DNA of 64,000 bases, taken from positions 86,314 to 150,313 of the forward strand of contig CAZCSK010000001.1 in the NCBI GenBank assembly GCA_964501265.1, read 5' to 3'. A program made the translations under genes and the position numbers. How positions within the stretch are numbered: position 1 is the first letter of the stretch; each line of letters begins with the position of its first letter. Shown here one piece after another: positions 1 through 38,815 of the stretch. The DNA comes from an uncultured Actinomycetes bacterium (lineage in GTDB: Bacteria > Actinomycetota > CADDZG01 > JAHWKV01). Below the pieces are notes generated by a model that saw only the letters and a program-made list of their open reading frames with translations, did not search any database and was not told the origin of the DNA.

Positions 1-660
1 CACTGCGGCTTCAGCAAGGCGTGCCCAGGTTGTCGGTTCGCCGCCGCCGGCGAGGTGGATGACTCCCCTCTGTCCCTTGCCGATCAACTCGAGGATGCCA
101 TGTGCTAAGTCGACCGCGTACGTCGGGCGGCCCCACTGATCGTCGACAACATCGATTGACTCCCGGTCACGGGCCACCGCCAGGATCGAGCGGATGAAGT
201 TGCCCCCTTCGCCGAACATCCACGAAGTTCTAACGACTAGATGTTCAGCCGTCGCGGCCCTGCGTTCGCCCTCAAGTTTTGTACGGCCGTATACGTTCAA
301 CGGCCCCGTTTGGTCATCTTCGTTGTAAGGGCCTGACTTATCTCCGGAAAAGACATAGTCGGTCGAAATCTGAACCAACAAAGCCCCGTGACGCGCGCAA
401 GCCTCTGCCAGATTGCCGACGGCCTCAGAGTTCACCGCCGCCGCGGCGCCGGGATTGGCCTCGGCATCCTTGACGTTATAAACCGCAGCATTGATCACAA
501 CTTTTGGACTGTGTACGGCGACACTCTTCATCACGGCCACCGGATCGGTCACATCCAAACCAGCGTGATCCAGTACAAGGGCATCGGGGCGAAGGGCAGC
601 CAGCGCTTTGCCCAACTGTCCGCCGCCGCCGGTTACCAGGATTCGGGTATCGATGCCCAC
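1..660 (-). CDS. rmlD: dTDP-4-dehydrorhamnose reductase (RmlD), partial; C-terminus lies beyond window start
   Basis: Manual translation of the reverse strand from ~660 gives VGIDTRILVTGGGGQLGKALAALRPDALVLDHAGLDVTDPVAVMKSV..., the Rossmann N-terminus typical of RmlD. It overlaps the rmlC stop by ~28 nt. Not in the ORF track because its stop lies outside the window. Confidence 0.75.
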   Translation of the reverse strand, partial: MGIDTRILVTGGGGQLGKALAALRPDALVLDHAGLDVTDPVAVMKSVAVHSPKVVINAAVYNVKDAEANPGAAAAVNSEAVGNLAEACARHGALLVQISTDYVFSGDKSGPYNEDDQTGPLNVYGRTKLEGERRAATAEHLVVRTSWMFGEGGNFIRSILAVARDRESIDVVDDQWGRPTYAVDLAHGILELIGKGQRGVIHLAGGGEPTTWARLAEAAV

Positions 661-1211
661 TCGAGTTTGGAGTTTTCCTTGTCTCGGTCGGAAAGAATCG
701 GGCCGGAGATCTTCCAGGGACAGTCGAATGCGGGATCGTCCCATGCCACCCCGAACTCGTCGCTTGCGTCGTAGTAATCGGTCACCCAGTAGATGAGATC
801 CACATCCGTAACGGCAAGGAAACCATGAGCCACGCCCGGAGGGATATACAGGACTTGCGGTTCGCCGCCGACAAGGTCGATCGATACAACCGCTGGTTGG
901 TCCGTGCGGGTGCGAAGGTCGGCCAGCATCGCTTGGGCGTGGCCTCCAATGACGTACCAGAGGTCGGATTGATGGCGGTGCCAGTGAAGGCCGCGCAGCA
1001 CACCTGACGTGGATTTGGAATGATTGCTTTGCACGAACTTGACCCCGAGATTGCTCTCCCGCAAAATCTCCATGAAGGATCCTCGCTCGTCGGTGTGAAC
1101 GTCAGGGACGCCGATCAGGGCGCCGGGAATACCCGTAACTTCTTCGAACTTCATGCCGACTTCGAGTCGGTGTAAATAGACTCCGCTTCGGCTACGTGCG
1201 ATGCCCACCAA
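633..1211 (-). CDS. rmlC: dTDP-4-dehydrorhamnose 3,5-epimerase (RmlC, cupin fold)
   Basis: 192-aa ORF with a cupin-fold core (…RGLHWH…). Lies between rmlB and rmlD on the same strand. Confidence 0.85.
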   Translation of the reverse strand: MVGIARSRSGVYLHRLEVGMKFEEVTGIPGALIGVPDVHTDERGSFMEILRESNLGVKFVQSNHSKSTSGVLRGLHWHRHQSDLWYVIGGHAQAMLADLRTRTDQPAVVSIDLVGGEPQVLYIPPGVAHGFLAVTDVDLIYWVTDYYDASDEFGVAWDDPAFDCPWKISGPILSDRDKENSKLEWASIPESW

Positions 1212-2167
1212 TCGCGATTATTGCCATACCAGTCGACGGTTTTGCCGAGCTGTTCCCAGACGTCGCCTGGGCTCCAGCCAAGGGCGGTGATCTTTGAGGA
1301 GTCGACTGCGTAACGGCGATCGTGGTCGGGCCGATCGTAGGCAGTCATGGTGATGCGGTCGTCGCCCAAGTCGAGGTAACGCAAAAGCCAGCGGACCAGT
1401 TCGATGTTGGTGATTTCCGGATCGTGCATGGGGCCAACGTTGTACGCCTCGCCCGGCGTGCCCTGCTCTGCCAGGAGTCCGATCGCCCGGGCAAAGTCCT
1501 CGGCGAAAAGCCATTGCCTTATATAGAGGCCATCACCCCAAACCAGCAACGGGTCGTCGGTGAGCGCTCGCGCGATCCATCGCGGAAACGCCTTCTCGGG
1601 AAACTGCCAAGGGCCAAATGCGTTTGTGGGGCGGGCCACGACTACGGCCAGCCTGTCGGAGTGCGCAAGGGCAAGGTCGTCGCCCAATGCCTTCGATTGC
1701 GCATAAGGGCTGCTCGCCGCCCCCACGCCCGGCGGCTTATCGACCTCACGGAAGGCGCCTTCAAGGAGCGAACCGTAAACCTCGTCGGTGGAGATGTGTA
1801 CGAACTTCTCGACGCCGCTTGCAATGGATTCGGCGAGCATCGTGCGCGTGCCTTCAACGTTGGTGCGGTGGAATCTCTCAGGATTCGACTCGCTACGTGT
1901 CACGTGCGTCTCTGCGCCGTAGTGCACCACAACATCTGGTTTGTATTCGCGCATGGCCGCCTCGACATCCTCGGCCGAGGCAACATCGCCGCGCACAAAA
2001 GAGTAACGAGGATCGTCTTCAAGATCAGCGAGGCGAAGCCGGTCCCCCGCGTAGGTGAGCAGGTCGAAATTGACAACAGTCTTGGCCCCCGAAGCCAAAG
2101 CATGCCGGACAAAATGGCTACCCAAGAACCCGGCGCCGCCGGTGACGAGAATTCGGCTGCCGTTCAT
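1151..2167 (-). CDS. rmlB: dTDP-glucose 4,6-dehydratase (RmlB)
   Basis: ORF contains MNGSRILVTGGAGFLGSHFV… (GxxGxxG NAD site), a YxxxK region and extended-SDR dehydratase features. Start placed at ATG 2167 (MNGSRILVTG) rather than the ORF-track 2245. Confidence 0.85.
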   Translation of the reverse strand: MNGSRILVTGGAGFLGSHFVRHALASGAKTVVNFDLLTYAGDRLRLADLEDDPRYSFVRGDVASAEDVEAAMREYKPDVVVHYGAETHVTRSESNPERFHRTNVEGTRTMLAESIASGVEKFVHISTDEVYGSLLEGAFREVDKPPGVGAASSPYAQSKALGDDLALAHSDRLAVVVARPTNAFGPWQFPEKAFPRWIARALTDDPLLVWGDGLYIRQWLFAEDFARAIGLLAEQGTPGEAYNVGPMHDPEITNIELVRWLLRYLDLGDDRITMTAYDRPDHDRRYAVDSSKITALGWSPGDVWEQLGKTVDWYGNNRDWWASHVAEAESIYTDSKSA

Positions 2168-2316
2168 GACGAGATCAGAGCGCGCCAGCGTGAAGGCGCC
2201 TCGCGGAAGAACGTGCGTCAATAAACATTGCAACGAGAATACCATCGCTGCTTCGAACCAAGGGTGCGCTCCCCGGTGAATGGACCACAGCTTTCAGCCT
2301 TCTCATCAACGTTAGA

Positions 2317-5300
2317 TCACGCCCACCTTAGCGTCGCCCACGGGGCGTACCCCCGCGAACCGGAGGGTGCACTCGCAACAGATTTCGGACACTTCCTCGT
2401 CCCGTTGGATGTCGATTTAGAACGGGGACGGCATGGGGCGTCGGTGATGGTGCCAATGCCCTCGGAATCGCTGATCGAGGCGTTCACAGCGGCGGCCAGG
2501 TGGACCTTAAAGGTCTCGTCATATTCAGAGGTCGTGTCGCTGTTGACGATCACAGTCACAGTCTGGGTCGTGGTGGTCGGCCCAAAGGTTAAGGTCCCCG
2601 ACGTCGCCTGATAGTCCGATCCGGCAGCGGCTGTCACGTCTTGGGTCGCGAAGGTGACCGTTGCGGTGACTTCGGTCGCTCCGGTCTTGGTGACGGTAAA
2701 GACCGCGGTGGTGGTGCCGGAGCTACCTTCGTTCACGGTAACGTCGTTGATGGCAAATGAGGGTTGGTCGTCGTCGTTGGTGATCGTTCCAACGCCTTGA
2801 GAGTCGGAAATCGTTGCATCGGTAGCTCCACTCAGGTTGACGAAGAAAGTCTCGCTAGGCTCGAAGGTGGCATCTGCGTTGACTGGGATGCTGACCGATT
2901 GAGTGGTTGTCCCAGGCGCGAAAGCGAGAGTGCCACTGGTGGATGCATAGTCCGCAGGCGACGTAGCGTCGGCGTCGGCCGTGGCGAAGTTCACGGTAAC
3001 CATTTGTCCGCTCGCAGTCGACAGCGCGACTGTGAAGGTCGCCGCCCCGGCACCCTCCTCGACCGTCACATCGTTGATCGAGATGGTCGGGCCAGGATCG
3101 TTGTCGGTGATCGTACCCACACCCTGGCCGGGCCCGCCGGCCGAGATCGTTGCGTTAGTTGGATTGGAGAGATTGACGATAAAGGTCTCATTTTCCTCGT
3201 CAAGACTGTCCTCGAGGATCGTAACGTCCACCGTAGTCGTTGTTTGCCCAGAGGCAAAGGTCGCCGTCCCGGTTGCCGCGGTGTAATCGAACCCTGCCGT
3301 CGCGGTCGCGTTCGCGGTGGCAAAATCCACCGTCGCCTCATCAGTCAGCGGCTGCGACAGCGAAAGGGTGAAGGTCGCCGTCCCGCTATCCTCGCCGACA
3401 GCGACATCCGTGATCGAGATCGAGGGCGGCGGCCCGACGATCACGGTCACCGTCGCGGTGTCCGTGCGACCCTCTGGAAGCTCTGAATCGGTGATCGTGT
3501 AGGTGAAGCTGTCGGTGCCGATGAAGTTCGAGTAGGGACTGTAAGTACAGACTCCAGCCTGGGTGCATGAGGCCGCGCCGTTGGCAGGCGGGGTAGAGGC
3601 GGTCACGGTGAAGGGATCCCCATCGGGGTCATAGTCGTTGTTCACTACGTTGATCGTGACCGGCTTGCCCTGGCGAGTGCCAGCCGAATCGTCCACGGCG
3701 TTGGGAGACCGGTTTGGAGCGGTTCTTGCGAACGGGAGTTCGCGCTGCGATTGAACGTCGTCCAGAAAACCTTCACCCTCAACCGTCGAGGGACATAGCC
3801 GGAGGGGCTTGAACTTCCACTGCTCGTACATTTCGAGCTGGTCGATGTAGTGGGCGGGATATGCGCTGTTCGCCTTCGGGTCCGAGGTGTCCGATTCATA
3901 TCTCAGCAAATCGGCCGCCGAGACGGGCGCGCCCTGGCCCGGGGGCAAGATCGAGAGGGCGTTGCAGGTTCCGATTTCAGATATGAAATTGTAAGAGGAA
4001 TGGTCGAAACCGTTCACATCCCGCACCGCGAGGGCCCCAAGAGCTCGGACCTCTATCGTGTTCACGGGTAGTTTGGGCAAGCTCGACAGATCCCCGGTCC
4101 CGGTCGGATCGAGGACATTCAATCCCTCGTCCAGGGCAGTCACTAACAACTCGTCCCAAGTTTCGACGGTCTCGGTAGTAGAGATGTTGTCGAAGTATTT
4201 GCGCGAGGGGGTGAGACCGGTGAAGGGCTCACGCGCGCGCGCGTGACGCAACCACCGCTCCAAGGGGGCTAGTTGCTCCTGCGACGTACCGATCGACGGC
4301 CGACCCGCCAACTCGTCGAATACGAGTGGATAGATGCGGTCCCAGACCGGTCCGGGTTTCAGCGTGCCCCCGTACACATCACTCGGCATGTCATCGGCAG
4401 CCCAGATGGCCAGCCCGGGCGCGTCGTAGAAACCGTCCCCGTTCCCGATCCCGTCCACGTCGACGCGAGCGAACCCGGACTCCGCCCAGTCGTGGAGTAG
4501 GCCCAGTGCTTCCTCCCGACGATCCTGAGCCGGAGTGGTCGGCGTGGAGCGCATCTCAACTGCCTCACTCATTGCGTCGACTAAGAATCCCACCAAAGGA
4601 TCGGTGTCGCAGCAAGCAAGACGGTTCACTACCTTCATTTCGGCGAAGCTCACAGTATCGAGTTCGTCGGCGTCGGCGAGAGACCGGACAATGTCTTCGG
4701 TGACGCCTCGGCGCTCCAACCGCCCAATACGCCATTCGTCTGAGGACGACCACCAACTAACCGGCTTTGAGTCCCATCCTTGATTCGCGACGAGAAACCC
4801 TTGGCTCGGGTTGCGAACGTGGGGATTGGGGATCAAACCCTCCTGCCACTCAAAATCGCTGGAGTGCCCTGGGGTGGGGAGTCGAAGGTCGAGTCCAGCG
4901 GCGTGGAGCTGATTGCGCCCCGAAAACCAGTAAGCGATGTTGCCTTCCGTGTCGGCGTACGGGATGTGAACGCTCCAGGAGGCCTCCTGGATCGCGTCGT
5001 TGGCCTCATCGATGGTTTGAGCCTCAGTTAGGTGGAAGAGACTGGCGAGGTTGTCGAGAACATGCCCTTCTTGCGCCCGCTTGCGAACGTACGCGACGTC
5101 ATTGTCTGGGTCGGTGCTGAAAACCGTTCCATGTAGTGATCGCTGGAATTCGCGCTCCTCAGTCGTGAACTCGGGCACCGTCGGACTGGTGGGATTGGTG
5201 TTGCGGACGAGGAATTGTTCCGTCCGACGCACGAAGGGCCGGGCATCATCATCGTATATGTAGAAGTTGTCAACGTCCGAGAGCTGCTCTATTACCACGT

Positions 5301-6393
5301 CGACTTGATCCCCGGCTGATCCGGCCACTATCGTCCACGCGTGGTGGCTGCACGTTCCATTTACGAGGAATGGCCCCGCCCCCGGAACTGCCGCGCCCGC
5401 GCAATCGATGCCCGGAGCATGCATCCCAACTTCCCACACGAGCGGCGGAGCGGCGATCCCAGACTGCGGTGCGCCAAGGAGCATGGCATTGCCGCTGGCC
5501 GATTGCGAGGGGCCTATTGCGACTCCATACGATCCAAGCTTGGGCAGCGCAGCATCGTCCATGACGCGCCCCAGCAATGCGTCCTGCGACTGGGTCATGG
5601 CCATCGGCAAGGGAAGATCCAAGAATGCGAGTTGAGAGGGGGGCGGAGTGCCGGGCGGCGACGTCAGAATGCTCGGCGCCGGCGGTGCATCGGAGTCAGG
5701 GATGACGGGCGTCGCGTCGGGGTCGTTGATCCAAAGCGTGTCGTCCCAAATACCATCGGCCTCGGCCGAAATGGCGCCGGCCTCGGCCGCGGGAAACCTG
5801 TCCTTCAGCTGGCCCAAGAACACTGCGTTCTCCAGCTCGCCGCCTCCGCCCCAGCCTCCATTATCGACACTTGTGAACAGCAGGGCGACGGCCGCAGAGT
5901 CGATCATGGTCCAAGGCTCGGGTTCGTAGCCGAGGGCCGCAAACTCCACGGGGCTTCGAGTGGGATCGGCGATAACCGCGGCCCACCCGGCGGTGATGCC
6001 GTTGGCGTAAGCATCCCAAAGTCCCCGCAGATCGGGATCCCAGTCGTCGATCTCGGCCTGGATGCGGCTCCTCTCGAAAAACTCCTGGCGCATGAGAATG
6101 TCCTCCTGGAGGAAGTCCCCCGTACCATCGTTATCCGCATCTTCGCCGGCCCCCAGAATCTCGGTCAGCCGCCCCTGGCCCGCCCGACGGTATACGTCTA
6201 ACTGAAAGGGCCGATCCTCAGCCAGCGAAAAACCCATGGCGTAGGCCAGGGCGTTCTGGGAAGGCGCGTCGATGTGCGGAACCCCGAAGGAGTCGCGGTA
6301 AACGGTGGCGAGTTCCGCCGGGGCTGCCAAGGTTGGCGATGGAAGCACAACAGTGATGAGCGTCAGCGCACAGAGAATCGCTGCCCCTCGCAC
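2317..6393 (-). CDS. Secreted penicillin-amidase-family (Ntn-hydrolase S45) protein with cadherin-like/VCBS-like segment and 4 C-terminal Calx-beta domains
   Basis: N-terminus has a signal peptide followed by VYRDSFGVPHIDAPSQNALAYAMGF…, the hallmark penicillin/AHL acylase motif. The C-terminal ~480 aa carry 4 repeats of …TFTVxLSxxSGQxVTVxFATAxxTATxxxDYxxxSGTLxFAPGTTTQxVxIxVxxDxxxExxETFFVNLSxATxATI…GxGTITxDD (Calx-beta-like), preceded by NNDYDPDGDPFTVTA…. Confidence 0.8.
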   Translation of the reverse strand: MRGAAILCALTLITVVLPSPTLAAPAELATVYRDSFGVPHIDAPSQNALAYAMGFSLAEDRPFQLDVYRRAGQGRLTEILGAGEDADNDGTGDFLQEDILMRQEFFERSRIQAEIDDWDPDLRGLWDAYANGITAGWAAVIADPTRSPVEFAALGYEPEPWTMIDSAAVALLFTSVDNGGWGGGGELENAVFLGQLKDRFPAAEAGAISAEADGIWDDTLWINDPDATPVIPDSDAPPAPSILTSPPGTPPPSQLAFLDLPLPMAMTQSQDALLGRVMDDAALPKLGSYGVAIGPSQSASGNAMLLGAPQSGIAAPPLVWEVGMHAPGIDCAGAAVPGAGPFLVNGTCSHHAWTIVAGSAGDQVDVVIEQLSDVDNFYIYDDDARPFVRRTEQFLVRNTNPTSPTVPEFTTEEREFQRSLHGTVFSTDPDNDVAYVRKRAQEGHVLDNLASLFHLTEAQTIDEANDAIQEASWSVHIPYADTEGNIAYWFSGRNQLHAAGLDLRLPTPGHSSDFEWQEGLIPNPHVRNPSQGFLVANQGWDSKPVSWWSSSDEWRIGRLERRGVTEDIVRSLADADELDTVSFAEMKVVNRLACCDTDPLVGFLVDAMSEAVEMRSTPTTPAQDRREEALGLLHDWAESGFARVDVDGIGNGDGFYDAPGLAIWAADDMPSDVYGGTLKPGPVWDRIYPLVFDELAGRPSIGTSQEQLAPLERWLRHARAREPFTGLTPSRKYFDNISTTETVETWDELLVTALDEGLNVLDPTGTGDLSSLPKLPVNTIEVRALGALAVRDVNGFDHSSYNFISEIGTCNALSILPPGQGAPVSAADLLRYESDTSDPKANSAYPAHYIDQLEMYEQWKFKPLRLCPSTVEGEGFLDDVQSQRELPFARTAPNRSPNAVDDSAGTRQGKPVTINVVNNDYDPDGDPFTVTASTPPANGAASCTQAGVCTYSPYSNFIGTDSFTYTITDSELPEGRTDTATVTVIVGPPPSISITDVAVGEDSGTATFTLSLSQPLTDEATVDFATANATATAGFDYTAATGTATFASGQTTTTVDVTILEDSLDEENETFIVNLSNPTNATISAGGPGQGVGTITDNDPGPTISINDVTVEEGAGAATFTVALSTASGQMVTVNFATADADATSPADYASTSGTLAFAPGTTTQSVSIPVNADATFEPSETFFVNLSGATDATISDSQGVGTITNDDDQPSFAINDVTVNEGSSGTTTAVFTVTKTGATEVTATVTFATQDVTAAAGSDYQATSGTLTFGPTTTTQTVTVIVNSDTTSEYDETFKVHLAAAVNASISDSEGIGTITDAPCRPRSKSTSNGTRKCPKSVASAPSGSRGYAPWATLRWA

Positions 6394-6411
6394 GCGGTTC
6401 CACGTAATGAG

Positions 6412-6439
6412 GCAGGCCCTGCCGGTAGGCAGGGCCTGC
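6412..6439. terminator. Perfect 12-bp stem / 4-nt loop hairpin between two co-directional giant genes (putative intrinsic terminator, no U-tract)
   Basis: gcaggccctgcc-ggta-ggcagggcctgc read directly from the sequence. Lies between the stop of the 6474..10693 gene and the start of the 2317..6393 gene. Confidence 0.45.
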
Positions 6440-6473
6440 TCTCTAACTACTAGGTACGTGATTTTGGCTTAAC

Positions 6474-9400
6474 TCACAGGAGGAAGTCCCAGAGGTTACC
6501 CGTTCGGTCCAGCACCACGCCGGCGAACGAACTGGGCAGATCAAACGCTTTGTAGCTATCCACTCCCACGGTGTAAGGATGGCTGGCAGCGACAGCGGTC
6601 ACGGCTCCGAACGGGTGGATGCCGCCGTAGCCGTCGAGCACGTAACCCGAGTTCGGCTCGTTCGTTAGCAGCGCATCGTTGGCGATGTCGTTGCCAGCGA
6701 AGTAAGGCAGCCCTGTCAGTGCAGCCGCGCCGTTGACCGGGTGCATGCCGCCGTAGCCGTCCAGGATGTACCCAGGTGAGTCTCCCGTCGCGGGATCCTG
6801 CAGCACCAGCTCACGTGCGATGTCGATGCTGAAGTAAGGCCCGGGCACAGCACCGTTCCCGCCGAACGGGTGGATTCCACCACGACCGTCGAGCATGTAT
6901 CCGCCGTCATAGTCTTGCTCCTGGTTGTAACCGGTCAGGACCACGTCCCTTGCGATGTCGTTGCCGGGGAAGTACGGAAGTCCCTGGATTGCGTTCGGCG
7001 TGGTTCCGCTGAGGGTGCGGAACGGGTGCATACCGCCCCAACCATCGAGGACGAATCCGCCTGACACGTCGCCATTCTGGTCTTCAAGTAGGACAACTTC
7101 GCGTGCGATGTCGAAGTTGGGGAAGTAGGGCAGTCCCGTGACCGCTTCAGCCGCACCTACGGGGTGCAGCCCTCCGTATCCATCGAGGATGTACCCGCTG
7201 CAACTGTCGAACATCTCCACGTCTCGTGCGATGTCGCCCGAGAATGTGGGCTCGTTATACGGACCACATGAAGCGTTGGTTATCGTGCCCACGCCCTGGG
7301 GGTCGGAAATCGTTGCGTTGGTTGCCCCACTTAGGTTGACGAAGAAGGTCTCGTCGGGCTCAAACGTCGTATCTGCGTTAACCGTGATGTCGACTGTTTG
7401 GGTGGTCGTCCCAGGAGCGAAGATAAGCGTGGTCGTGACGACAGCCGTGTAGTCCAGCGGTGCTGTGGCTGTGCCGTTAGCCGTCGCATAATCAACAGTG
7501 ACGGTCTGACCACTGGGTGAGCCAAGAGTCACAGTGAAGGTGGCGGTGGTGGTACCCGCCGTGGGCTCCGCTACCGTCACGTCGTTGATGGACAAGCCGG
7601 GGGAGGCGGGAGGGTCATTGTCATTGATCGTGCCGACTCCCTGACCATCCAGGATTGCTGCGTTCACCGCGTTGGAAAGGTTGACGAAGAAGTTCTCGCT
7701 TGGCTCGTCCAATGCGTCATCCACGACCGAGACGTTGACCGTCTGCGTGGTTGCCCCGGGCGCGAATGTGACCGTGCCGGTAGCAGATGTGTAGTCCGCC
7801 GGTGCCGAGGCAGTGCCGTTGGCCGTCGCATAGTCGACGGTGACGGTCTGAGCGCTGGGCGCGGAAAGAGTCACCGTGAAGGTAGATGGCCCAGCTCCCT
7901 CGGTGACCGCCGGCGCGTCATTGATAGACAGAGTGGCGGTAGCTGGGTCGTTGTCGTTGATCGTGCCCACACCCTGACCATCAAGGATCGATGCGTTCGT
8001 CGCGTTGGAGAGGTTGACGAAGAAGTTCTCGCTGGGCTCGTCCACTGCGTCATCCACGACCGAGACGTTCACCGTCTGGGTGGTTGCCCCAGGCGCGAAC
8101 GTGAGAGTGGTGGTGGCAACGGCTGTGTAGTCCGCCGGTGCGGTGGCGGTGCCGTTGGCCGTCGCATAATCGACGGTCACTGTCTGACCGCTGGGGGCGG
8201 ACAGAGTCACCGTGAAGGTAGCTGGTCCGGCTCCCTCGGTGACCGCCGGCGCGTCATCGATGGACAAAGTGGCAGTAGCTGGGTCGTTGTCAGTGATCGT
8301 ACCCACGCCCTGACCATCAAGGATCGTTGCGTTCACCGCGTTGGAGAGGTTGACGAAGAAGTTCTCGGTTGGCTCATCCAATGCGTCATCCACGACCGAA
8401 ATGTTGACCGTCTGGGTGGTGGTACCGGGCGCGAATGTAGCCGTTGCAAGGGTAACGGCTGTGTAGTCCCCCGGCGCCGCGGCAGTGCCGTTGGCCGTCG
8501 AGTAGTTGACCGTTACCTCCTCGCTAATTGCTCCCGACAGCGTGATCGTGAAGGTAGCCGGGCCCCCGCTCTCGCTGACCGACGGAGCGTCGTTGATCGA
8601 GATCGTAGGCGCCATCACGTAGCCATTAAGCAGGTCGTGGCCGAGGAAGCAGCCGTTGGAGCAGGAATCCGCCGCGGTGATGTTCCCATCGCTGTTCAGG
8701 TCCACGAGACCGTTGTTGGCGGCGGCGGGAGGGTTCGCGAATCCACAGGGATTCGTGTTTCCTGCCGTGTTACCGAGGATGTCGGCCCCATCCGTCATGT
8801 CGCCGGCCCCGGCGTCGACCGTCTCACCGATGAGCCCGAAGTGACAGTCGTTGGCGTTGATCATCTCGTTGCCGTCAGAGTCCACCCGACCGCTGATGGC
8901 GGACCAAGCGAAGTCAGAGTCGCCGACATCCGGATTATCGGGATCACCGGCGTTAAAGACGGTGGGCAGCGGTCCATCGGCCACCTGAAACTCGCCGTCT
9001 ACGACATCGATCGTTACCCCATCGACGGTGCCGTCGTATCCGATGAGGGTGCAGTCGTCGCTGGCGTTGATTACGCCGTCGCCAGCGGCACCATCATTGT
9101 CAACGGTCCAGGCGTTGCAATCCAGGTATCCGTCGATGATGTGGGTGTCGCCGTAAAACGCGTTTGAGTCGTCGCGTCCAGTGACGGTGCCGCTACCGTT
9201 TAGGTCGGCCCGTCCGCCGATAATCGTCGGCGACAGCCCGCCCGTGTATACACCTGCGGGAGGCGGCGGCGGCGGCGCAGGAGCCACTGGCCCAGGAGAC
9301 TGCACGTAGCCGTTTGTAAGGTTGTGTCCGAAGAAACAGCCGTTGGTGCACGAGTCCGCGGCCGTGATGTCTCCGTCGCTGTTAAGGTCCACGAGCCCGT

Positions 9401-10693
9401 TGTTGGCTGGGTCCGGGGAGTTCGCGAACCCACATGGGTTCGTGTTCCCAGGGTCATTTCCGAGGATGTCGGCTCCGTCCGTGGCGTCTCCGAGCCCGGC
9501 GTCGACCGTCACACCGATGAGCCCGAAGTGACACTCATTGGTGATTATCTCGTCGCCATTGGAGTCCACCCGGCCGCCAATCGCGGACCAAGCGAAGTCA
9601 GAGTCGCCGACATCGGAGCTATTCGGATCGTCAGCGTTGAAAACGAAGGGCAGCGGTCCGTCGGCCCACTGGAACTCGCCGTCTACGACGTCGATCTCTG
9701 CCCCATCTGGGGTGCCGTCGTATGCGATGAGAGTGCAGTCGTCATTGGCGTCGATCACGCCGTTGCCGGCGTCCCCGTCGTTGTCGGACGTCCAGGCGTT
9801 GCAGTCGAGCTTGCCGTCGATGATGTGGGTATCGCCGTAGAACGCGTTCGAGTCGTCGCGCCCAGTGACGGTGCCGTTACCGTTTAGGTCGGCCTCTCCG
9901 CTGAAGACCGTCGGGGAGAAACCTCCCGTGTAAGAACCCGCAGGAGGTACGGGGGCCGCGGGTCCAGGAGACTGCACAAAGCCGTTAGTTAGGTTGTGGC
10001 CGAAGAAGCAGCCGTTGGTGCACGAGTCGGCGGCGGTGATGTTCCCGTCGCTGTTCAGGTCGACAAGACCATTGTTGGCTTCGGCGGGAGCGTTCGCAAA
10101 ACCACATGGGTTCGTATTCCCCGCGGTATTCCCGAGAATGTCGGCCCCATCGTGGGGGTCTCCCAGTCCGGCGTCGACCGTGTCGCCAATGAGCCCGAAG
10201 TGACAGTCGTTAGCATTGATCGTCTCGTTGCCATCGGAATCCACCCTGCCGCTAATCGTGGACCATGCGAACGCAGAATCGCCAACGTCAGGGTTGTTCG
10301 CGTCCCCGGCTTGGGGAAAGACGGTAGGAAGCGGGCCGGCCCATTGGAACCCACCGGCTACCACGGTAATTGTGACGCCACCTGGCGTGCCGTTGTATCC
10401 GACGAGCGTGCAGTTGTCGGCGGTTGTGATCGTTCCATCTCCGCCGCTGCCATCGTTGACAGACCCCCAATCGTCGCAGTCGAGCCCGCCGTCGATGATG
10501 TGGGTGTCGCCGTAAAACGCATTCGAGTCGTCGCGACCGTTACCCACGCCGTCACCGTTGAGGTCGGCATTTCCGTTCAGGACCGTCGGGGAGAAACCTC
10601 CCGTGAAGTCGGCTGCTGAAGCGGGGCTCGCCAGGAAGAACTGCCCTTGCAGGATCAACAGGGTGAGGACGCTGGTAAGTGCAACAGACTTCA
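6474..10693 (-). CDS. Giant secreted repeat protein: 3x ~228-aa Ca-binding-loop repeats, 4x Calx-beta, C-terminal 5x 'LDGxGGxHP…DIAR' repeats
   Basis: Signal peptide MKSVALTSVLTLLILQG…ASAADF (ATG at 10693, preceded by aagga). Three near-identical units begin …YTGGFSPTV… and contain DLNGDG / VDLNSDGNITAAD loops. Calx-beta units follow (…VTVDYATANGTATAPADYTA…). The C-terminus has repeats GYILDGYGGLHPVG…PYFPNFDIAREVVL. The ORF-track start at 10739 is probably an upstream extension. Confidence 0.8.
7290..8535. repeat. Tandem Calx-beta-encoding repeats (~330-nt period) within the giant gene; homologous array at ~2400-3700 in the amidase-family gene
   Basis: Repeated protein units …GPATFTVTLSAPSGQTVTVDYATANGTATAPADYTAV…NFFVNLSNATNASILDGQGVGTINDNDP…. 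Confidence 0.7.
8510..10560. repeat. Three tandem near-identical ~680-nt DNA repeats inside the giant gene (encoding the 228-aa Ca-binding unit)
   Basis: Antisense ORFs at 8637, 9324 and 9996 have near-identical translations (MAEEAAVGAGIRRGDVPIAVQVHE… / MSEETAVGARVRGRDVSVAVKVHE… / MAEEAAVGARVGGGDVPVAVQVDK…). This gives a period of ~672-687 nt. Confidence 0.8.
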
Positions 10694-11000
10694 TCCTTGG
10701 GGTGTGCGTTACTTCTGAGGAGCGGTTCCTTCTAAACATCTAGTGTTCCCCTTTCGTAGGAGACCAAAGTTATTGGACAAACGGTTTCTGCCCAGACATT
10801 ACCGAGCTCAAACAATTTTCCTTTGTGATTTGTCTTCGTGATTGCCTGACCCTAGTGGAAATTGTCGCTTTTTGTCAAGTTTGAGAAGTGCCCCCCGGCC
10901 AGCCTCGCTGCCTGCCCTATCCTCCCGAGGAAGTCCTCCGGCTGGTAGCCTCTTGATTTCCTCCCAATTTAGGCCAAATCGTAGGAGTAAGGGCAAGAAA

Positions 11001-19133: not shown

Positions 19134-21878
19134 ATGCTGCGTAGAGTCCTAGTTTCAATTGCCTTGCTTGGCTCTCTCCTCGTCAGGGCACCAATTCCTG
19201 CATTGGGCGGACCTAGTTCGTTTGTCTTTCAGGGGGGAGGCTTCGGGCACGGAATTGGAATGAGCCAGTACGGCGCGCTCGGGATGGCCCGCGCCGGTTT
19301 CCCGTACGACCAGATCCTTAAGCACTACTACACCGGGGTGACGGTGGGCTCACGAGCATTGCCCCCCACTATCAGAGTGGGCCTCCGGCAAACCGACGGC
19401 GGCTTTCGCCTTTCGGGAAACGGGCTCTTCACCTTCTCCACATCGATCGACGGAGCAGCAATGTCCACCGGCAACACAGACGAGTGGTGGGACATCCGCC
19501 GCGAGGGATCGTCGGTCTTTCTTCTCGCCCCGCCGGCCCGCGTCCAACAGGGAGAACCTGCCGAGCGGGGACCTTTCGCCCAGATATGGCAGCGACCGGC
19601 ATCGGGCGTTCTACTGAAGTTCGTCGAATTTGTAAGTCCATCCTGGAAGGTAACCGGCGAGTACGCACACGGGCGCATACAAGTGAAGGCAAGCGCTGCG
19701 GCGACCACCACGCACGTGGTTCTCGATGCGATCTCGCTCGAAGAGTACGTCTATGGAGTTGCGGAGGTTCCTTCATCTTGGCCAGCGGAAGCAAAGAAGG
19801 CGCAGGCGGTCGCGGCTCGCACCTACGCGGGCAAGAAGGCGGAGGAACAACAAAACCGAAGCAGTTGTTCGTGCGCGGTCGTCGACGACACCCGTGACCA
19901 AGTGTACGCAGGATGGATCAAGGAAACCCCCGCGTGGACGAGCGCGGTTGATGCCACTGCTTCAGTAGTGGTCACGTACGCCGGGGTGATGGTTTCTACG
20001 TTTTACTCCTCTTCGTCCGGCGGATACACCGAGGACAACGAAAAGGTTTGGGGAGGCAGCGCCATCCCGTACCTGCGCGCTGTCTCGGACCTGTACGACA
20101 ATCAGCCGGAAAACTCCCGCTGGCGATGGACGATTTCGGTTTCAGCAGAAGAGTTGAGCAATCGGATCAACAGTTACTTGACCTCTATTGGCCGGCCCCA
20201 GGTGGGAATCGTTCAAGACCTTCTTTATCCGGCGCCGCGCGGGCACGCTGGCCGCATCATCGTGATCAGTGGTAGCGGTGGGGGCGTGACAGTCATCGGA
20301 TCAAGCGCAACCGCGCGGCTTTCAGGCGACCAGTTCAGGTCTGCAGCGAAGTTGCCCAGCTCACTCATCTTCCCATCGATAAACGAACCCACTCGCGACG
20401 TTTCGGGTGGGTACGTGGCAGACGCACGCGGGGGCCTTCATCCTTTCGGCGGAGCGGGGCCGGCAGTGGGTGGCGCCTACTTGAGCCAACCTATAGTGCG
20501 AGACGCGATCTACAGGACTGACGGACGGGGAGGCTATGTTCTCGACGGACGCGGAGGTCTTGCAAGGATCAATGGTGCGCCCGAAATTGGCTCGGCTCCC
20601 GCGTTTGGCATCGACATAGCGCGATCCATGGCCATCACCCCCGACGGATCCGGTGGTTACGTTGTCGACGGATACGGCGGCATCCATAGTTTGGGAAGCG
20701 CGCCGCCCCTTACTGGGAGCCCGTACTGGCAGGGATGGGACATTGCCCGCGCAATTGCTCTTTCTCCCGACGGACTTGGCGGCTATATGTTGGATGGTTT
20801 TGGCGGGCTTCATCCTCTCGGCAACGCCGCGCCAGCGGTTGATCTGCCGTACTTCGGATTTGACATCGCCCGGGATCTGATCATGAGGAGGGACGGAAGC
20901 GGCGGTTATGTGCTCGACGGTTTTGGAGGGATCCACCCGTTCAACGGCGCTCCCGCAATTTCGTCTTCCGGGTATCACGCCGGCGTCGACTCGGCAGCGG
21001 CTCTAGTTCTTCGCAACAAAGGCGTCGGTGGTTATGTGCTCGAACGCTCCGGCGCCCTCGTGGCGGTTGGGGGAGCGCCGGGAGTGTCAACGACTGGCTA
21101 CTTCGACTCGGGCGCTGCCCGGGGAGTCCTCCTTCCTCCCGACCCCGAGGGGTACATCCTTTCGAGCGAGGGCCCAGTGAGCGCGTTCGGTCTGGCGCCG
21201 GCCCTTGTCGGCGCGCCTAATTTTGGCATGGACATCGCGCGCGACCTCGCCCTTCGTCCAAACAGAACCGGATTCGTGCTCGACGGATATGGAGGATTGC
21301 ATCCTGTAGGGGTCGGGGCCCCCGCAGCGATCGGTGGCTCGTATTTCTCCGGACAGGATCGAGTTCGTCGGATCGCGCTGACAACCGACGGAAGTTACGG
21401 ATACGCGATGGATGCCGACGGAAGCCTGTACCCATTCGACGGCGCACCCGCGGTAACGGAGACTTCAACCTGGTGGCCGGATGGCTTCGATGTGGCGCGC
21501 GACTTCGTGCTTCGTCCATCGGGAGGCGGCTACCTCATAGACCGGGGAGGACTGGTTCACGAATTCGGTGGAGCGCCAGCAGTTTCAAGCTCGTGGTACG
21601 TAGGAGGAGAAGATCGCGCTCGAGCCCTTGCCCTCTTGGCCGACGGACAGTCGGGGTATGTCCTTGAAGTAAACGGCGTCCTGCATCAATTCGGTAGCGC
21701 GCCACCACTCGAATCTGGAGTGGTCATCGCCGACGCTCGCGACCTGATTCTGCGTCCGGACGGCCGTTCGGGCTGGATCGTCGGTGTTTCGTTAATCCAT
21801 CCTTTCGGTGGAGCGCCTCCAGTCTCGGGTGGATTGCCTTCCGACAAAGCAGCTCGGGCCGGCGTGGGAACCTCCTAG
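19134..21878 (+). CDS. SpoIID/LytB-domain cell-wall protein with C-terminal array (~12x) of 'LDGxGGxHP…DIAR' repeats
   Basis: Signal peptide; the SpoIID/LytB hallmark GGGFGHGIGMSQYGALGMA…YDQILKHYYTG. Residues ~413-914 are ~42-aa repeats, e.g. GGYVLDGFGGIHPFNGAPAI…, GFVLDGYGGLHPVGVGAPAAIGGSYFSGQDRVRRIAL. Confidence 0.8.
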   Translation: MLRRVLVSIALLGSLLVRAPIPALGGPSSFVFQGGGFGHGIGMSQYGALGMARAGFPYDQILKHYYTGVTVGSRALPPTIRVGLRQTDGGFRLSGNGLFTFSTSIDGAAMSTGNTDEWWDIRREGSSVFLLAPPARVQQGEPAERGPFAQIWQRPASGVLLKFVEFVSPSWKVTGEYAHGRIQVKASAAATTTHVVLDAISLEEYVYGVAEVPSSWPAEAKKAQAVAARTYAGKKAEEQQNRSSCSCAVVDDTRDQVYAGWIKETPAWTSAVDATASVVVTYAGVMVSTFYSSSSGGYTEDNEKVWGGSAIPYLRAVSDLYDNQPENSRWRWTISVSAEELSNRINSYLTSIGRPQVGIVQDLLYPAPRGHAGRIIVISGSGGGVTVIGSSATARLSGDQFRSAAKLPSSLIFPSINEPTRDVSGGYVADARGGLHPFGGAGPAVGGAYLSQPIVRDAIYRTDGRGGYVLDGRGGLARINGAPEIGSAPAFGIDIARSMAITPDGSGGYVVDGYGGIHSLGSAPPLTGSPYWQGWDIARAIALSPDGLGGYMLDGFGGLHPLGNAAPAVDLPYFGFDIARDLIMRRDGSGGYVLDGFGGIHPFNGAPAISSSGYHAGVDSAAALVLRNKGVGGYVLERSGALVAVGGAPGVSTTGYFDSGAARGVLLPPDPEGYILSSEGPVSAFGLAPALVGAPNFGMDIARDLALRPNRTGFVLDGYGGLHPVGVGAPAAIGGSYFSGQDRVRRIALTTDGSYGYAMDADGSLYPFDGAPAVTETSTWWPDGFDVARDFVLRPSGGGYLIDRGGLVHEFGGAPAVSSSWYVGGEDRARALALLADGQSGYVLEVNGVLHQFGSAPPLESGVVIADARDLILRPDGRSGWIVGVSLIHPFGGAPPVSGGLPSDKAARAGVGTS

Positions 21879-24186: not shown

Positions 24187-26059
24187 CCGCCCGGGCAACA
24201 TCCAGGCCCACCCATGTGCTTGATTGCGGCAGTCCAGGGGCATTACCGAACGTCCAGATCCTCCCGATGGAATCAAGCACCCAACCTCCTCCTCCGTCTG
24301 AGGTAAGAGCCAGTCCGCGCGCAGTGTCTTGGCCGGGTGCGTAGTAATTCGGAGACATCGATGGGGCTCCACCAAAGGAGTGAAGTCCACCCCAGCCGTC
24401 GAGCACGTACCCACTAATGCCATCTGGGCGCAAAGCGATCGCTCTTGCAATATCAAATCCGAAATAGGGAACGCCCAGTACCTTGGAAGCGACCCCCAGC
24501 GGGTGGACCCCGCCAAAGCCATCTAGGACGTAGCCGGCCGTGCCTGATGCATTCACAGCAATTCCCCGGGCGATATCCCACCCCCAATAAGGGCCACCAC
24601 GAGGAAGGGCGGCGCCACCGAATGGGTGAACACCTCCGTAGGCGTCAAGAACGTAGCCTGTCCCATTCGCCGGACCTTTAGCGGCCCCTCGCACTATGTC
24701 CCACCCGGCCCAATAGGAGTTCCCGGAGATCGGCAACGCGTCGCCATAAGGATGTAACCCGCCATATCCGTCAACGACATACCCGCCGCTGCTCGACCCG
24801 ATTGCGGCGCGCGCAATCGGCCACTTTGCCCAGTAGGAAGAGTGAGTCACCGCCGCTTGGCGCCCGGCGGGGTGCAGCCCTCCGTAACCGTCAAGCGTCA
24901 AGAGGCCCGGCCCGCTCGCTGCGGGGGTCCAACCGGGCAACGGGTGTGGCGGCGTGGAAAACACTTCCGACTGCACGTCGATACGCAGCTGGGGGATTAA
25001 GGGATAAGCGCGATCCCCTGGGCAGGCGGTTGCCGACACGTCTCGATGCCCACTGATCACGTCGAGCGTCACGTTCGTACCCGCTGGATAGCGCGTTGAC
25101 CCGCCGCTCACCGCCTGAATCTGAGCGCGTGAGTCGACTGTGTGATGGGTGAGTTTCCAGGCAAGTAGAGAACGCAACGCGGAACGAGAGGCGACCGGAA
25201 CCGGCACTGGCCCGTGCTCGCCAATCAAAGCGACACCTGTACTGCCGGTGTTGAACCCCCCGGAGTGCGCACCGATTACAGGTTTGGTCGTGCCTCCGAA
25301 CCGGCCCTCGTACACTCGGCCGAACCGATCGATAAGAAAGTTGTAACCGATGTCGCACCACCCGTTGCCAAGAACGTGGTAACGGTAGATGGCGCGCACA
25401 ATCGCCGGGGCCTCTTCTGCTGTGTAAGTGTTGGCGTTGACCGTGTGATGAACGAACGAATTCCTTAGTGAGCCAGCGTATTCGGGGGTTCCACAACCAG
25501 AGTTGGACGTGCGCAGGCTTTCATCGGCCCCCCATTCGGCGCGCGAGATTATCCCTGGCTGAGCAGGGGTCGCCGTCGCCGGAGAAATAGTGAACGGGCG
25601 AGGCTGCGAAACCTCCGAATGAATTAGATGCATCTTCAGCTGCGCGAGCGATCCCTCGGTGACTCGCACGTCCAGCGCGTCGACTCCACGCCCGATCCAG
25701 GTTGGGCCCGCCGATGTGGTGGCGCGATTCTCCATCGAACTCGGGTCCGGGCCTTCGTCGGGGTTGCCGTAAAGCTCGGTCCAGGGGGACCACCCGTCTC
25801 CTCTTCTAAGACGAATCTCCACTGCGCCCTCCACGTGGCCTTGCCACTCGAACCCAACGACTTCCGCCGGCTTGCTTAGCGACAGGAAACGGCGGTATCC
25901 GGGAGATGCTTCTTGAAGTGAACCGGACGCCAGGTCAACGATCCGGCTTTCCACGCGGGGCGGCCTCTGCTGCGGCGCGACCAAACCAGCCGATACCAAC
26001 GACAAAGCCACTACCAGCGGAGGCAGCCTTAAGGACCATCGATTCATGTGTGAAGACAC
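24170..26059 (-). CDS. N-acetylmuramoyl-L-alanine amidase (Amidase_2/PGRP domain) with C-terminal 'LDGxGGxHP…DIAR' repeats (~6x)
   Basis: Signal peptide; Amidase_2 motifs …FVHHTVNANTYTAEEAPAIVRAIYRYHVLGNGWCDIGYNFLIDRFGRVYEGR… The C-terminal ~255 aa are repeats, e.g. GYVLDGFGGVHPLGVASKVLGVPYFGFDIARAIAL. Confidence 0.8.
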   Translation of the reverse strand: MSSHMNRWSLRLPPLVVALSLVSAGLVAPQQRPPRVESRIVDLASGSLQEASPGYRRFLSLSKPAEVVGFEWQGHVEGAVEIRLRRGDGWSPWTELYGNPDEGPDPSSMENRATTSAGPTWIGRGVDALDVRVTEGSLAQLKMHLIHSEVSQPRPFTISPATATPAQPGIISRAEWGADESLRTSNSGCGTPEYAGSLRNSFVHHTVNANTYTAEEAPAIVRAIYRYHVLGNGWCDIGYNFLIDRFGRVYEGRFGGTTKPVIGAHSGGFNTGSTGVALIGEHGPVPVPVASRSALRSLLAWKLTHHTVDSRAQIQAVSGGSTRYPAGTNVTLDVISGHRDVSATACPGDRAYPLIPQLRIDVQSEVFSTPPHPLPGWTPAASGPGLLTLDGYGGLHPAGRQAAVTHSSYWAKWPIARAAIGSSSGGYVVDGYGGLHPYGDALPISGNSYWAGWDIVRGAAKGPANGTGYVLDAYGGVHPFGGAALPRGGPYWGWDIARGIAVNASGTAGYVLDGFGGVHPLGVASKVLGVPYFGFDIARAIALRPDGISGYVLDGWGGLHSFGGAPSMSPNYYAPGQDTARGLALTSDGGGGWVLDSIGRIWTFGNAPGLPQSSTWVGLDVARAVITTR

Positions 26060-29589: not shown

Positions 29590-29616
29590 CTCAACGGACG
29601 GTAGATTAGCGCCGTG
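29590..29616 (+). promoter_or_regulatory. Putative leaderless-type promoter: -10 TAGATT, 6-nt spacer, GTG start codon
   Basis: cggTAGATTagcgccGTG read directly. The same arrangement and flanking sequence recur at 35803-35829. Confidence 0.4.
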
Positions 29617-35802: not shown

Positions 35803-35829
35803 CCCGGTGAGCGGTAGATTGAGACCGTG
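35803..35829 (+). promoter_or_regulatory. Second copy of the TAGATT-N6-GTG leaderless-type promoter
   Basis: gcggTAGATTgagaccGTG. The flanking ~60 nt are conserved with 29560-29616. Confidence 0.4.
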
Positions 35830-37807: not shown

Positions 37808-38815
37808 ATGCGGCTCGTTTCTCGCCGCCTGATTGTGTCAATCGCAATTCTTGCCACGAGTACTGCATTGCTGTCGGTCGGCGCTCTAGTGGTGCGGCGG
37901 GGAGTCGTCAGAGAAGTAGCGCCCCCGGGAGAGCCCGCAACCGATATGCCTCCCGCAGTCGCCCAATCCCCCACACCCGAGTTTTCTCCTACCCCGGAGA
38001 GGCCCTCACACCTACTCTCCCCCCCGCAGGAAATCCCCACGTCCGCCACGTCCCCTCAGGACTACATTTGGAGCTTTCCGAAGTTGACCCTGAGCATAAA
38101 TGTAGATCCTGTAGAAGGGCCCACCTATGTCGGCCCCCAAGCACGAGGTGGATCGGGGTGTGCAAGGCTGATGGCCCAGACAAAGGGATCTGACATCACC
38201 GTTGAAGGTATGCGCTACCCACGCGATGCCATTTGCACGGCGGATACTCCGTTGCGCTGGGAGCCGATTGCAGTCAATGGCGCTGCGATGCAAATCACCA
38301 TTCGCTACCAGGGAGAAACTGGCGTATACGAGTTGAACCGGATTGAAGGTCGAGTGCGCTTGCTGCTTGCGCAGGGAATGGATGTCAGTCCGCCTGTGTG
38401 CCCGGCCTGGTGGGAGGTTCCCTCGGATATCTTAGCCGTCTCCGTCTGGAACAACGACGACCGCGCGGCCGCGACTGTAGAACGCGTCTCTGATCGCATC
38501 AGCTACCGGCTTCATGAGGAAGGCGGGTCCAAGCATGATCCACCACCCGGAAGAGCGATCGTCAAACGAGCAGGTGCCGACGACAACGGCGGTTGCGACG
38601 GCGAAGCTTCTGTCCTACCTGCGGCGTGGCGGGACCGGGAGGGGTTGTCCCGCAGCTTTCGCGTCTACCGCACTTCATCCGACGACAGCACACTCCAGCG
38701 AATCGCCGCGGAGGAGTCCAGTCGGGAGAAGGATTACTGCATAAACGTGAACATGAGCAGGCGATCCGAGTACATGGCGTCTCCAAAAATCCGGACCGAA
38801 GGCTGCCAGTATTGA
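37808..38815 (+). CDS. Hypothetical membrane-anchored/secreted protein (N-terminal TM, Pro-rich linker, Cys-containing domain)
   Basis: 335 aa; hydrophobic segment LIVSIAILATSTALLSVGALVV, then a P/S/T-rich linker. No family recognised. Confidence 0.45.
   Translation: MRLVSRRLIVSIAILATSTALLSVGALVVRRGVVREVAPPGEPATDMPPAVAQSPTPEFSPTPERPSHLLSPPQEIPTSATSPQDYIWSFPKLTLSINVDPVEGPTYVGPQARGGSGCARLMAQTKGSDITVEGMRYPRDAICTADTPLRWEPIAVNGAAMQITIRYQGETGVYELNRIEGRVRLLLAQGMDVSPPVCPAWWEVPSDILAVSVWNNDDRAAATVERVSDRISYRLHEEGGSKHDPPPGRAIVKRAGADDNGGCDGEASVLPAAWRDREGLSRSFRVYRTSSDDSTLQRIAAEESSREKDYCINVNMSRRSEYMASPKIRTEGCQY

Follow-up and report, generated by a model that had tools for sequence, protein, structure and literature searches.

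A penicillin amidase-family protein with a Big_9 and Calx-beta tail and a remodelled oxyanion loop from an uncultured actinobacterium

S45 acylases are industrial workhorses for semisynthetic beta-lactams and are regarded as quorum-quenching candidates. Which role can be assigned to such an enzyme core when it is continued by domains typical of adhesins, and is its active site still functional? This question is raised by a gene in a stretch of 64,000 nucleotides from an uncultured Actinomycetes bacterium (GenBank assembly GCA_964501265.1, contig CAZCSK010000001.1, positions 86,314 to 150,313; in the following the window). The gene, in the following the acylase, comprises an uninterrupted single open reading frame (2317..6393, minus strand) with a GTG start and 1358 amino acids, and is listed as P0001 in the set of homologues used here. 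An earlier prediction, made from the sequence alone, had described it as an S45/N-terminal nucleophile (Ntn) hydrolase fused to a cadherin-like segment and Calx-beta domains. The Pfam matches support this headline and the unusual architecture, including the long adhesin-like C-terminal tail, for which about 500 residues had been claimed and about 475 non-catalytic residues (Big_9 and Calx-beta) were determined. Based on the data presented below, we consider it probable that the protein is a secreted, self-processing S45 Ntn-hydrolase on a stalk, which belongs to a divergent Actinomycetota subfamily with a rebuilt oxyanion loop. The acylase belongs to a known enzyme family, of which it represents a rare variant with fused domains, and its most interesting point is the replacement of the oxyanion Asn loop throughout the subfamily, which the original prediction had missed.

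The acylase is a member of the penicillin amidase family (PF01804, MEROPS S45, Ntn hydrolases). The Penicil_amidase match covers residues 29-870 with E = 6.5e-85 and 287 bits compared to a cutoff of 21.3, and spans profile positions 2-672 of 675. In a phmmer search against all PDB sequences, Gram-positive penicillin G acylases (PGAs) were the best matches (6nvw_B, E = 6e-42), followed by E. coli-type PGA at about 1e-26 and then by D-succinylase, glutaryl acylase and PvdQ (1.5e-5). Residues 27-237 align with the PGA alpha chains 8brq_A, 3k3w_A and 1ai4_A (E from 1e-15 to 6e-19) and contain the TVYRDSFGVPHIDA motif, which had been noted before and is located at residues 30-43. An AlphaFold2 (AF2) model of residues 1-885, calculated with 49 sequences, reached a mean predicted local distance difference test score (pLDDT) of 87.5 and a predicted template modelling (TM) score of 0.90. 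In this model the alpha region is all-helical with a pLDDT above 90, and the linker of typical length shows helices at 252-259 and 264-280 with lower pLDDT. A Foldseek search with the model returned Bacillus PGA beta chains with TM scores of 0.85-0.88 and a root-mean-square deviation (rmsd) of 3.4-3.7 Å, and whole-chain D-succinylase precursors with TM scores of 0.71-0.73 (E = 4.7e-34). Altogether, model and structural search determine a PGA-like Ntn fold.

The closest known systems are the PGAs of Bacillus/Priestia megaterium (6NVW; E = 6e-42, TM 0.88, rmsd 3.4 Å), Bacillus sp. FJAT-27231 (6NVX) and B. thermotolerans (6NVY). Like the acylase, the Gram-positive PGAs comprise a precursor with the order signal, alpha, linker and beta, a Ser after Gly, Gln23, the Ala69 equivalent and the aspartates of the Ca2+ site. 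Nonetheless, the structural alignments to the Bacillus beta chains show an identity of only 22-25%, and the Gram-positive PGAs carry an S-N terminus and a W-N-N loop where the acylase has S-Y and Q-G-W-D-S. Furthermore, the pocket residues R145 and F146 of the PGA alpha chain and F24 of the beta chain are not kept, and the 475-residue tail of one Big_9 domain and three Calx-beta units is present in the acylase and not in the PGAs. The precursor layout described for S45 enzymes comprises signal peptide, alpha chain, linker and beta chain (PMC5474475), and the order of alpha, linker and beta in the acylase matches it.

The position of the nucleophile was derived from the phmmer alignments to solved structures. 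Since V291 is aligned with beta residue 4 of 6nvw_B and I293 with residue 6 of 7reo, beta-Ser1 corresponds to Ser288 within the sequence ...LPKLG/SYGVAIGPSQSASGNAMLLGAPQSG (slashes mark predicted cleavage). The context of the predicted site is KLG/SYGVAIG, in which Ser288 is preceded by Gly287 at the end of the linker. All 48 homologues compared have Ser in the column of the nucleophile, which is also nearly invariant in alignment A2; the next residue is Asn in most homologues, Tyr in members of the close clade and Phe in a few sequences. It had been proposed that the processing site lies at SASGNAM. According to the alignment to solved PGAs, with which the family alignment agrees, SASGNAM represents beta residues 13-19, and the proposed site was about 14 residues away from the predicted one, which is a normal G/S junction with Tyr, not Asn, as the next residue.

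In the S45 family, the oxyanion hole of E. coli PGA is formed by the backbone N of Ala69-beta and the side chain of Asn241-beta, the equivalents in PvdQ are Val70 and Asn269, and the backbone of residue 23 assists (bioRxiv 10.1101/2022.01.13.476167). In the acylase, P309-Q310 provides the equivalent of beta Gln23, and V356-A357-G358, in which A357 is the Ala69 equivalent, is invariant in the clade and is followed by an insertion of one residue. Both the backbone oxyanion donor and the residue-23 contact were found accordingly. D362 and D365 are likewise conserved and occupy the positions of Asp73 and Asp76, the calcium-site ligands in E. coli PGA.

The oxyanion region itself reads G532-F-L-V-A-N-Q538-G-W-D541-S-K543. 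A gapless count from the conserved NPxxG motif places Gln538 at Gly+6, where Asn241 is found in E. coli PGA and Asn244 in glutaryl acylase. The W-N-N motif was found in 79 of 80 S45 loci from GTDB species representatives as well as in P0012-P0049, and Q-G-x-[D/E]-[S/T]-K occurs in a single clade only, made up of P0001-P0011, L002 and ten loci from soil metagenomes. This clade occurs in soil and sediment Actinomycetota, and most of its members are stand-alone enzymes of 810-880 residues. The Q-G pair does not vary across the approximately 22 clade sequences, and at position 541 Asp and Glu occur with about the same frequency; for this reason Gln538, or the backbone NH of Gly539, most likely replaces Asn241 as oxyanion donor. 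The invariance of Q-G in about 22 mostly stand-alone sequences points to a functional, selected variant of the active site. As a separate observation, three acylases from metagenome-assembled genomes of Chloroflexota (L003, L005 and L006) have the Ser-Tyr N-terminus together with the canonical W-N-N, which indicates that the two peculiarities of the acylase clade arose separately.

The following course of events is proposed for the acylase. The precursor would be exported by the Sec pathway, the signal peptide being removed after about Ala23, and would cut itself at Gly287/Ser288 and shed a linker of about 45 residues. The alpha chain (residues 24-240, approximately) would stay bound to the long beta chain (residues 288-1358), whose new N-terminus, Ser288, would serve as the nucleophile hydrolysing an amide (N-acyl) bond. 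The beta chain would extend into a rigid beta-sandwich stalk of one Big_9 domain and three Calx-beta units, which probably retains or targets the enzyme, be it to the extracellular matrix, to the cell surface or to a polymeric or particulate substrate, and probably has no catalytic part. The subfamily is characterised by the Ser-Tyr at the predicted N-terminus, the change of W-N-N to Q-G-x-D/E-S/T and an altered acyl pocket. The cleavage site of the predicted signal peptide was taken from the translation by reading, not from a dedicated predictor; the N-terminus of the relative P0002 is equivalent in length, and the signal region of the acylase contains neither a twin-arginine motif nor a lipobox (AILC). 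The Gram-positive members of S45 are extracellular, as for example AhlM of an actinomycete (PMC5474475).

A more far-reaching proposal is put forward only tentatively, and as a whole we regard it as rather doubtful. The clade of about 22 members would represent a new S45 subfamily in which Gln or the NH of Gly acts as second oxyanion donor instead of the otherwise universal Asn. D/E541 and the Gly-rich alpha loop would reshape the pocket for a class of substrates new to S45; N-acyl compounds from the cell envelope or from soil organic matter, either cationic or linked to sugars, would be examples. In the lineage of the acylase, a Ca2+-dependent Calx-beta stalk would hold the enzyme at the surface or at the substrate, the distal module being swapped between lineages (Calx-beta versus Flg_new_2/PD40).

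Several observations weigh against a secreted, self-processing hydrolase on a stalk. The canonical W-N-N-K with the oxyanion Asn is absent from the acylase at the aligned position, and phmmer, MAFFT and hhalign all set Asp541 under Asn241, with a gap of three residues before it. The comparison of the AF2 secondary structures, with a strand G+1..G+5, the loop QGWDS and the bridging Lys in the acylase and a strand G+1..G+4, the loop WNN and the bridging Lys in the canonical homologue P0012, does not fix which residue takes the position of Asn. Since the residues that define the PGA pocket are not conserved, no substrate can be proposed. In addition, no envelope anchor was found in the acylase (no LPXTG, C-terminal hydrophobic segment, transmembrane helix or lipobox), and genes for a cell-wall glycopolymer, which surround the acylase in the window, were not seen beside the relative P0003.

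Some of these points could also be explained by an acylase module that is a catalytically dead scaffold, the product being a protein of the surface or matrix without enzymatic function, such as a binding module or adhesin, self-cleaving or not. The replaced W-N-N, the Asp or Glu aligned under Asn241, the change of alpha R145/F146 to Gly/Gly and of beta F24 to Ser, and the tail domains typical of adhesins would fit such a protein. On the other hand, about 20 stand-alone enzymes, which carry no adhesin part, share this loop, Q-G is invariant within it, and the nucleophile Ser, the G/S junction, Gln23, the Ala69 equivalent and the aspartates of the Ca2+ site are kept, unlike in a decaying site. 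We therefore judge a dead scaffold to be unlikely. The original prediction had named the loss of the nucleophile and the oxyanion residues as the sign of an inactive scaffold. This applies insofar as the canonical Asn is absent in the whole clade; the nucleophile Ser288 is kept, and the conservation argues for a remodelled rather than a dead site.

Comparably improbable is the idea of the original prediction that the acylase cleaves N-acyl homoserine lactones (AHLs) for quorum quenching, or beta-lactams, while being displayed on the envelope. It would agree with the membership in S45, with extracellular actinomycete S45 enzymes such as AhlM, which cleave AHLs and penicillin G (PMC5474475), and with the ability of PGA-type enzymes to cleave AHLs (bioRxiv 10.1101/2022.01.13.476167). 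AHL acylases of the PvdQ/AiiD/QuiP/AhlM type share the superfamily, the fold and the catalytic principle with the acylase. The resemblance to PvdQ is low, with E = 1.5e-5 for the PvdQ chains and TM scores of 0.59-0.61, and the PvdQ type has His23, Asn269 and no tail domains, unlike the acylase. Assignment as a PvdQ-type bifunctional AHL/pyoverdine acylase (NCBIfam NF051460) was rejected, as the model scored 38 bits compared to a cutoff of 950. The same holds true for a PGA in the strict sense: in the alignment to 7reo, the PGA pocket residues Met142, Arg145 and Phe146 of the alpha chain correspond to V176, G179 and G180, which sit in the Gly-rich loop NGGWGGGGE, and beta Phe24 corresponds to S311. 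Judged by these sequence comparisons, the acylase belongs to the S45 family without being a PGA or a PvdQ orthologue in the strict sense. Moreover, the locus contains no AHL- or beta-lactam-related genes, and the acylase has no recognised envelope anchor.

The C-terminal part starts with a single domain at residues 891-984, which was matched by the Pfam models Big_9, Cadherin_4 and Cadherin_5 with E-values of 4e-20, 2e-12 and 1.3e-11, respectively, and by the NCBIfam tandem-95 repeat with E = 5.4e-14, below the cutoff of this model. It shows 40-50% identity to units of adhesins of 2000-7000 residues. Calx-beta, a family known to bind Ca2+, was matched behind it (PF03160, E = 5.9e-52, 175 bits in total) in three stretches, and the units are delimited by pairs of the motifs I[ND]D...G[VI]GTI[TN]. 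The four Calx-beta domains originally predicted are thus reduced to three: a fourth unit was rejected, as only three pairs of start and end motifs and three Pfam stretches exist, and the array of four units belongs to the neighbouring gene (6474..10739). Compared to giant bacterial adhesins of Big_9 and Calx-beta, the tail domains of the acylase show nothing unusual for these repeat families; the giant adhesins form a long fibre of repeats, whereas the acylase carries one Big_9 and three Calx-beta on an enzyme.

The Calx-beta units had also been called highly similar to those of the neighbour, which was taken as a sign of domain exchange. The three units of the acylase show 48-54% protein and 59-64% DNA identity among themselves, and 49-72% protein and 57-69% DNA identity to the four units of the neighbour. 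The tail was searched against 5.8 billion proteins, followed by a unit-by-unit comparison among 121 Calx-beta proteins. Unit 1 showed 57% identity to the neighbour, which ranked 4th of 121 (best other protein 60%), unit 2 showed 69% (1st of 121; best other 64%) and unit 3 showed 57% (48th of 121; best other 65%). In general, identities of 55-65% were found between the units and arrays of many different phyla. Based on the ranks of the neighbour, the similarity reflects the general likeness of bacterial Calx-beta arrays, and it lies at the database background with a slight excess for unit 2 alone. A recent domain exchange or gene conversion was rejected, since the DNA identity does not exceed 69% and the neighbour ranks first in the database for one of the three units only. 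The neighbour itself (6474-10739, minus strand, 1421 amino acids) starts with three copies of an Asp/Gly/Asn-rich repeat of about 225 residues (FTGGFSPTV..ADLNG.G.V.GRDDSNAFYGDTHIIDG.LDC...), for which only a sub-threshold dockerin-like match was obtained. These repeats are followed by the four Calx-beta units, two of which are 88-90% identical, and by five GYxLDGxGGxHP repeats.

The fusion is real and rare, and it occurs in a divergent S45 subfamily. Among the 49 homologues found with the core, 44 comprise PF01804 only, as had been expected for normally stand-alone S45 acylases, two (P0017 and P0023) carry a Por_Secre_tail of the type IX secretion system (T9SS), and three contain Big_9. The latter are the acylase (core, Big_9 and three Calx-beta), P0002 (core, Big_9, Flg_new_2 and a PD40 propeller; 1274 amino acids, 50-54% identity to the acylase) and P0003 (core, Big_9 and Flg_new_2; a fragment with 54-57% identity), in which Big_9 lies at the equivalent position. 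Across these three proteins Big_9 is constant and the distal module is variable. A search of a library of 1.84 billion representatives with a query including Big_9 returned mostly giant adhesins among the best 150 matches, and beyond P0002 and P0003 no acylase was listed above about 480 bits, the floor of these 150. Likewise, PF01804 did not occur among the best 120 matches of the tail. Among the matches inspected, the acylase represents the only combination of S45 with Calx-beta, and a literature search for Calx-beta together with an acylase yielded nothing, nor did one for the sequencing run SRR6868923.

Other S45 acylases with C-terminal additions (P0017, P0023, L053, L022, P0002 and P0003) resemble the acylase in this respect, none of them with Calx-beta, and among the extended acylases inspected the junction to Big_9 is shared by P0002 and P0003 only. 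L053 from Nitriliruptorales carries a C-terminal tail of about 127 residues without a Pfam match, and L022 is a PGA with a C-terminal extension of about 450 residues. The latter (Candidatus Azophilus sp., OZ244892.1, 9893-13579) is of the canonical PGA type, with an S-N-C nucleophile region and a W-N-N loop in one open frame. By eye, its extension resembles an amidase-signature domain (GGSSGG motif), which makes it a candidate for a fusion of two enzymes that appears to be unreported.

The coordinates of the features of the acylase gene and of the adjoining spacer are summarised in Table 1.

Table 1. Features of the acylase gene and the upstream spacer (window coordinates; aa, amino acid residues)
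Feature	Position	Strand	Evidence or remarks
GTG start and predicted Sec signal peptide, aa 1-23 (VRGAAILCALTLITVVLPSPTLA/AP)	6325..6393	-	basic n-region, 15-aa hydrophobic core, TLA/A cleavage motif
Alpha-subunit part of core, ~aa 24-240, with TVYRDSFGVPHIDA motif	5674..6324	-	phmmer to PGA alpha chains; C-terminal boundary approximate
Alpha/beta linker (spacer) peptide, ~aa 241-287, last residue Gly287	5533..5673	-	between end of alpha-chain alignment and beta-Ser1
Ser288 codon, predicted N-terminal nucleophile of beta subunit; site G287/S288	5530..5532	-	PDB alignments and invariant Ser column
Beta-subunit catalytic core, aa 288-880	3754..5532	-	PF01804 match to aa 870, AF2, Foldseek
Remodelled oxyanion loop A536-N-Q-G-W-D-S-K543, in place of x-W-N-N-K	4765..4788	-	alignments
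Single Big_9 / bacterial cadherin-like ('tandem-95') domain, aa 888-988	3430..3732	-	Pfam, NCBIfam
Calx-beta unit 1, aa 992-1098	3100..3420	-	Pfam and boundary motifs
Calx-beta unit 2, aa 1104-1207	2773..3084	-	closest to neighbour unit 4: 72% global alignment, 69% BLASTP
Calx-beta unit 3, aa 1213-1318	2440..2757	-	Pfam and boundary motifs
C-terminal tail, 40 aa, basic, Ser/Cys-containing (APCRPRSKSTSNGTRKCPKSVASAPSGSRGYAPWATLRWA), and stop	2317..2439	-	translation; no recognised sorting signal
GC-rich hairpin in 80-nt spacer, neighbour stop to acylase start	6409..6443	-	-39.7 kcal/mol, z = -6.0

The window represents a cell-wall glycopolymer locus with rmlBCDA, glycosyltransferases (GT2/GT4), methyltransferases, a Wzm/Wzt exporter and an aminotransferase, as well as an LCP ligase with LytR_C, SpoIID, YfhO and a MurNAc-L-Ala amidase. 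The nearest named relatives of a housekeeping carboxyltransferase encoded in the window are all Actinomycetota metagenome-assembled genomes (75-83% identity). From these relatives and from the wall genes (LCP/LytR_C protein, SpoIID and MurNAc-L-Ala amidase) it follows that the host is a monoderm actinobacterium, and the periplasm named as the normal setting of such enzymes does not apply to it. The acylase starts 80 nucleotides after the neighbouring gene, and rmlB lies 71 nucleotides downstream of the acylase. The hairpin in the 80-nucleotide spacer comprises a perfect stem of 12 base pairs extended to about 20 pairs, and none of 200 shuffled sequences was as stable in the RNA fold. It has no U-tail, the consensus terminator scan made no call, and the consensus scan for promoters and terminators performed no better on the real sequence than on shuffled ones. 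The hairpin may be a terminator (of the factor-independent, actinobacterial type), an attenuator or an mRNA-stabilising element.

Due to this neighbourhood, the substrate could be the cell-wall glycopolymer of the locus or the Calx-beta protein next to it; for example, the acylase would remove the acyl group from an N-acylated sugar or from a lipid-linked intermediate, with its tail docking to the neighbour. The gene does lie between the Calx-beta neighbour with its C-terminal GYxLDGxGGxHP repeats and rmlBCDA, the GT2/GT4, Wzm/Wzt, LCP, SpoIID and amidase genes adjoin, and unit 2 of the acylase is slightly nearer to unit 4 of the neighbour (69-72%) than to any database unit (64%). Against this, the context is not conserved at P0003, which is followed by cNMP (cyclic nucleotide)-binding, glyoxalase and ABC genes, P0002 and P0003 carry different distal tails, the other two Calx-beta units are no nearer to the neighbour than to unrelated proteins, and a strong hairpin separates the two genes. 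The comparison of the context rests on P0003, as the contig of P0002 is too short to judge it. Because of the missing conservation at P0003, little functional weight is given to the locus, and a substrate within it appears less probable than either a dead scaffold or an AHL or beta-lactam acylase.

Regarding the location of the stalked enzyme, the tethering to the envelope proposed before finds no support, since LPXTG, a hydrophobic C-terminus, a lipobox and a wall-binding repeat are all missing and the last 40 residues are polar as well as basic; the GYxLDGxGGxHP repeat, present in four other exported proteins of the window, is absent from the acylase. One could speculate that the protein is retained at the surface by the Calx-beta/Big_9 stalk or by the basic tail. 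A frameshift that hides a longer C-terminus, for example with wall-binding repeats, was rejected: the alternative frames stop without any continuation of the protein beyond the acylase stop, and only 71 nucleotides are left before the next gene.

The integrity of the gene was confirmed with an independent assembly. The Logan contig L001 (SRR6868923, 9437 nucleotides) encodes the exact acylase protein, is identical to nucleotides 1..8030 of the window with 0 mismatches, and spans all domain junctions of the acylase gene; it breaks at window position 8030, within the 88-90% identical Calx-beta units of the neighbour. Since the junction between core and Big_9 is also found in P0002 and P0003, relatives from other samples, a chimera is very unlikely, and the misassembly that the original prediction had considered as a refutation fails as such. 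An assembly chimera or a frameshift artefact, as might be suspected for a contig from a metagenome-assembled genome with Calx-beta repeats, which are prone to assembly errors as illustrated by the end of L001, can practically be dismissed in view of the identical second assembly across the entire gene, the junction kept in two other samples, the continuous reading frame and the low DNA identity of the acylase's own units (59-64%), which are too divergent for a collapse.

To our knowledge, the S45 apparatus of the N-terminal Ser and the oxyanion hole of Ala69 and Asn241 is treated as universal. A natural subfamily with a replaced Asn loop would offer a test of which parts of this apparatus are essential, and a source of new specificities. 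Furthermore, the beta chain can be extended at its C-terminus by large modules such as Big_9, Calx-beta, a PD40 propeller or T9SS tails, which is practical information for the engineering of immobilisation or display. Taken by itself, the acylase is one more case of a monoderm bacterium with a secreted enzyme that carries spacer or matrix-binding modules, and opens no new question.

Some further observations concern the remainder of the window. The region 10842-45207 encodes GT2, Wzm/Wzt, methyltransferases, GT1/GT4, YfhO, a DegT aminotransferase, a GFO/IDH oxidoreductase and the LCP ligase, and includes four large open reading frames without any Pfam match (29614-31239, 31268-33316, 35827-37590 and 37808-38815). 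The GYxLDGxGGxHP repeat, which comprises about 40 residues with the core GY[VIM]LDG[YWF]GG[ILMV]HP[FVL]G, occurs in 3-5 copies at the C-termini of four exported proteins, namely the Calx-beta neighbour, a SpoIID-domain protein, the MurNAc-L-Ala amidase and a protein with CarboxypepD_reg repeats; the sites are 6638-7187 (-), 20790-21279 (+), 24403-24895 (-) and 40224-40608 (+). In the neighbour and the amidase, neither Pfam nor NCBIfam matched the repeat, which in this actinobacterial lineage probably serves as a cell-wall-binding module not described before.

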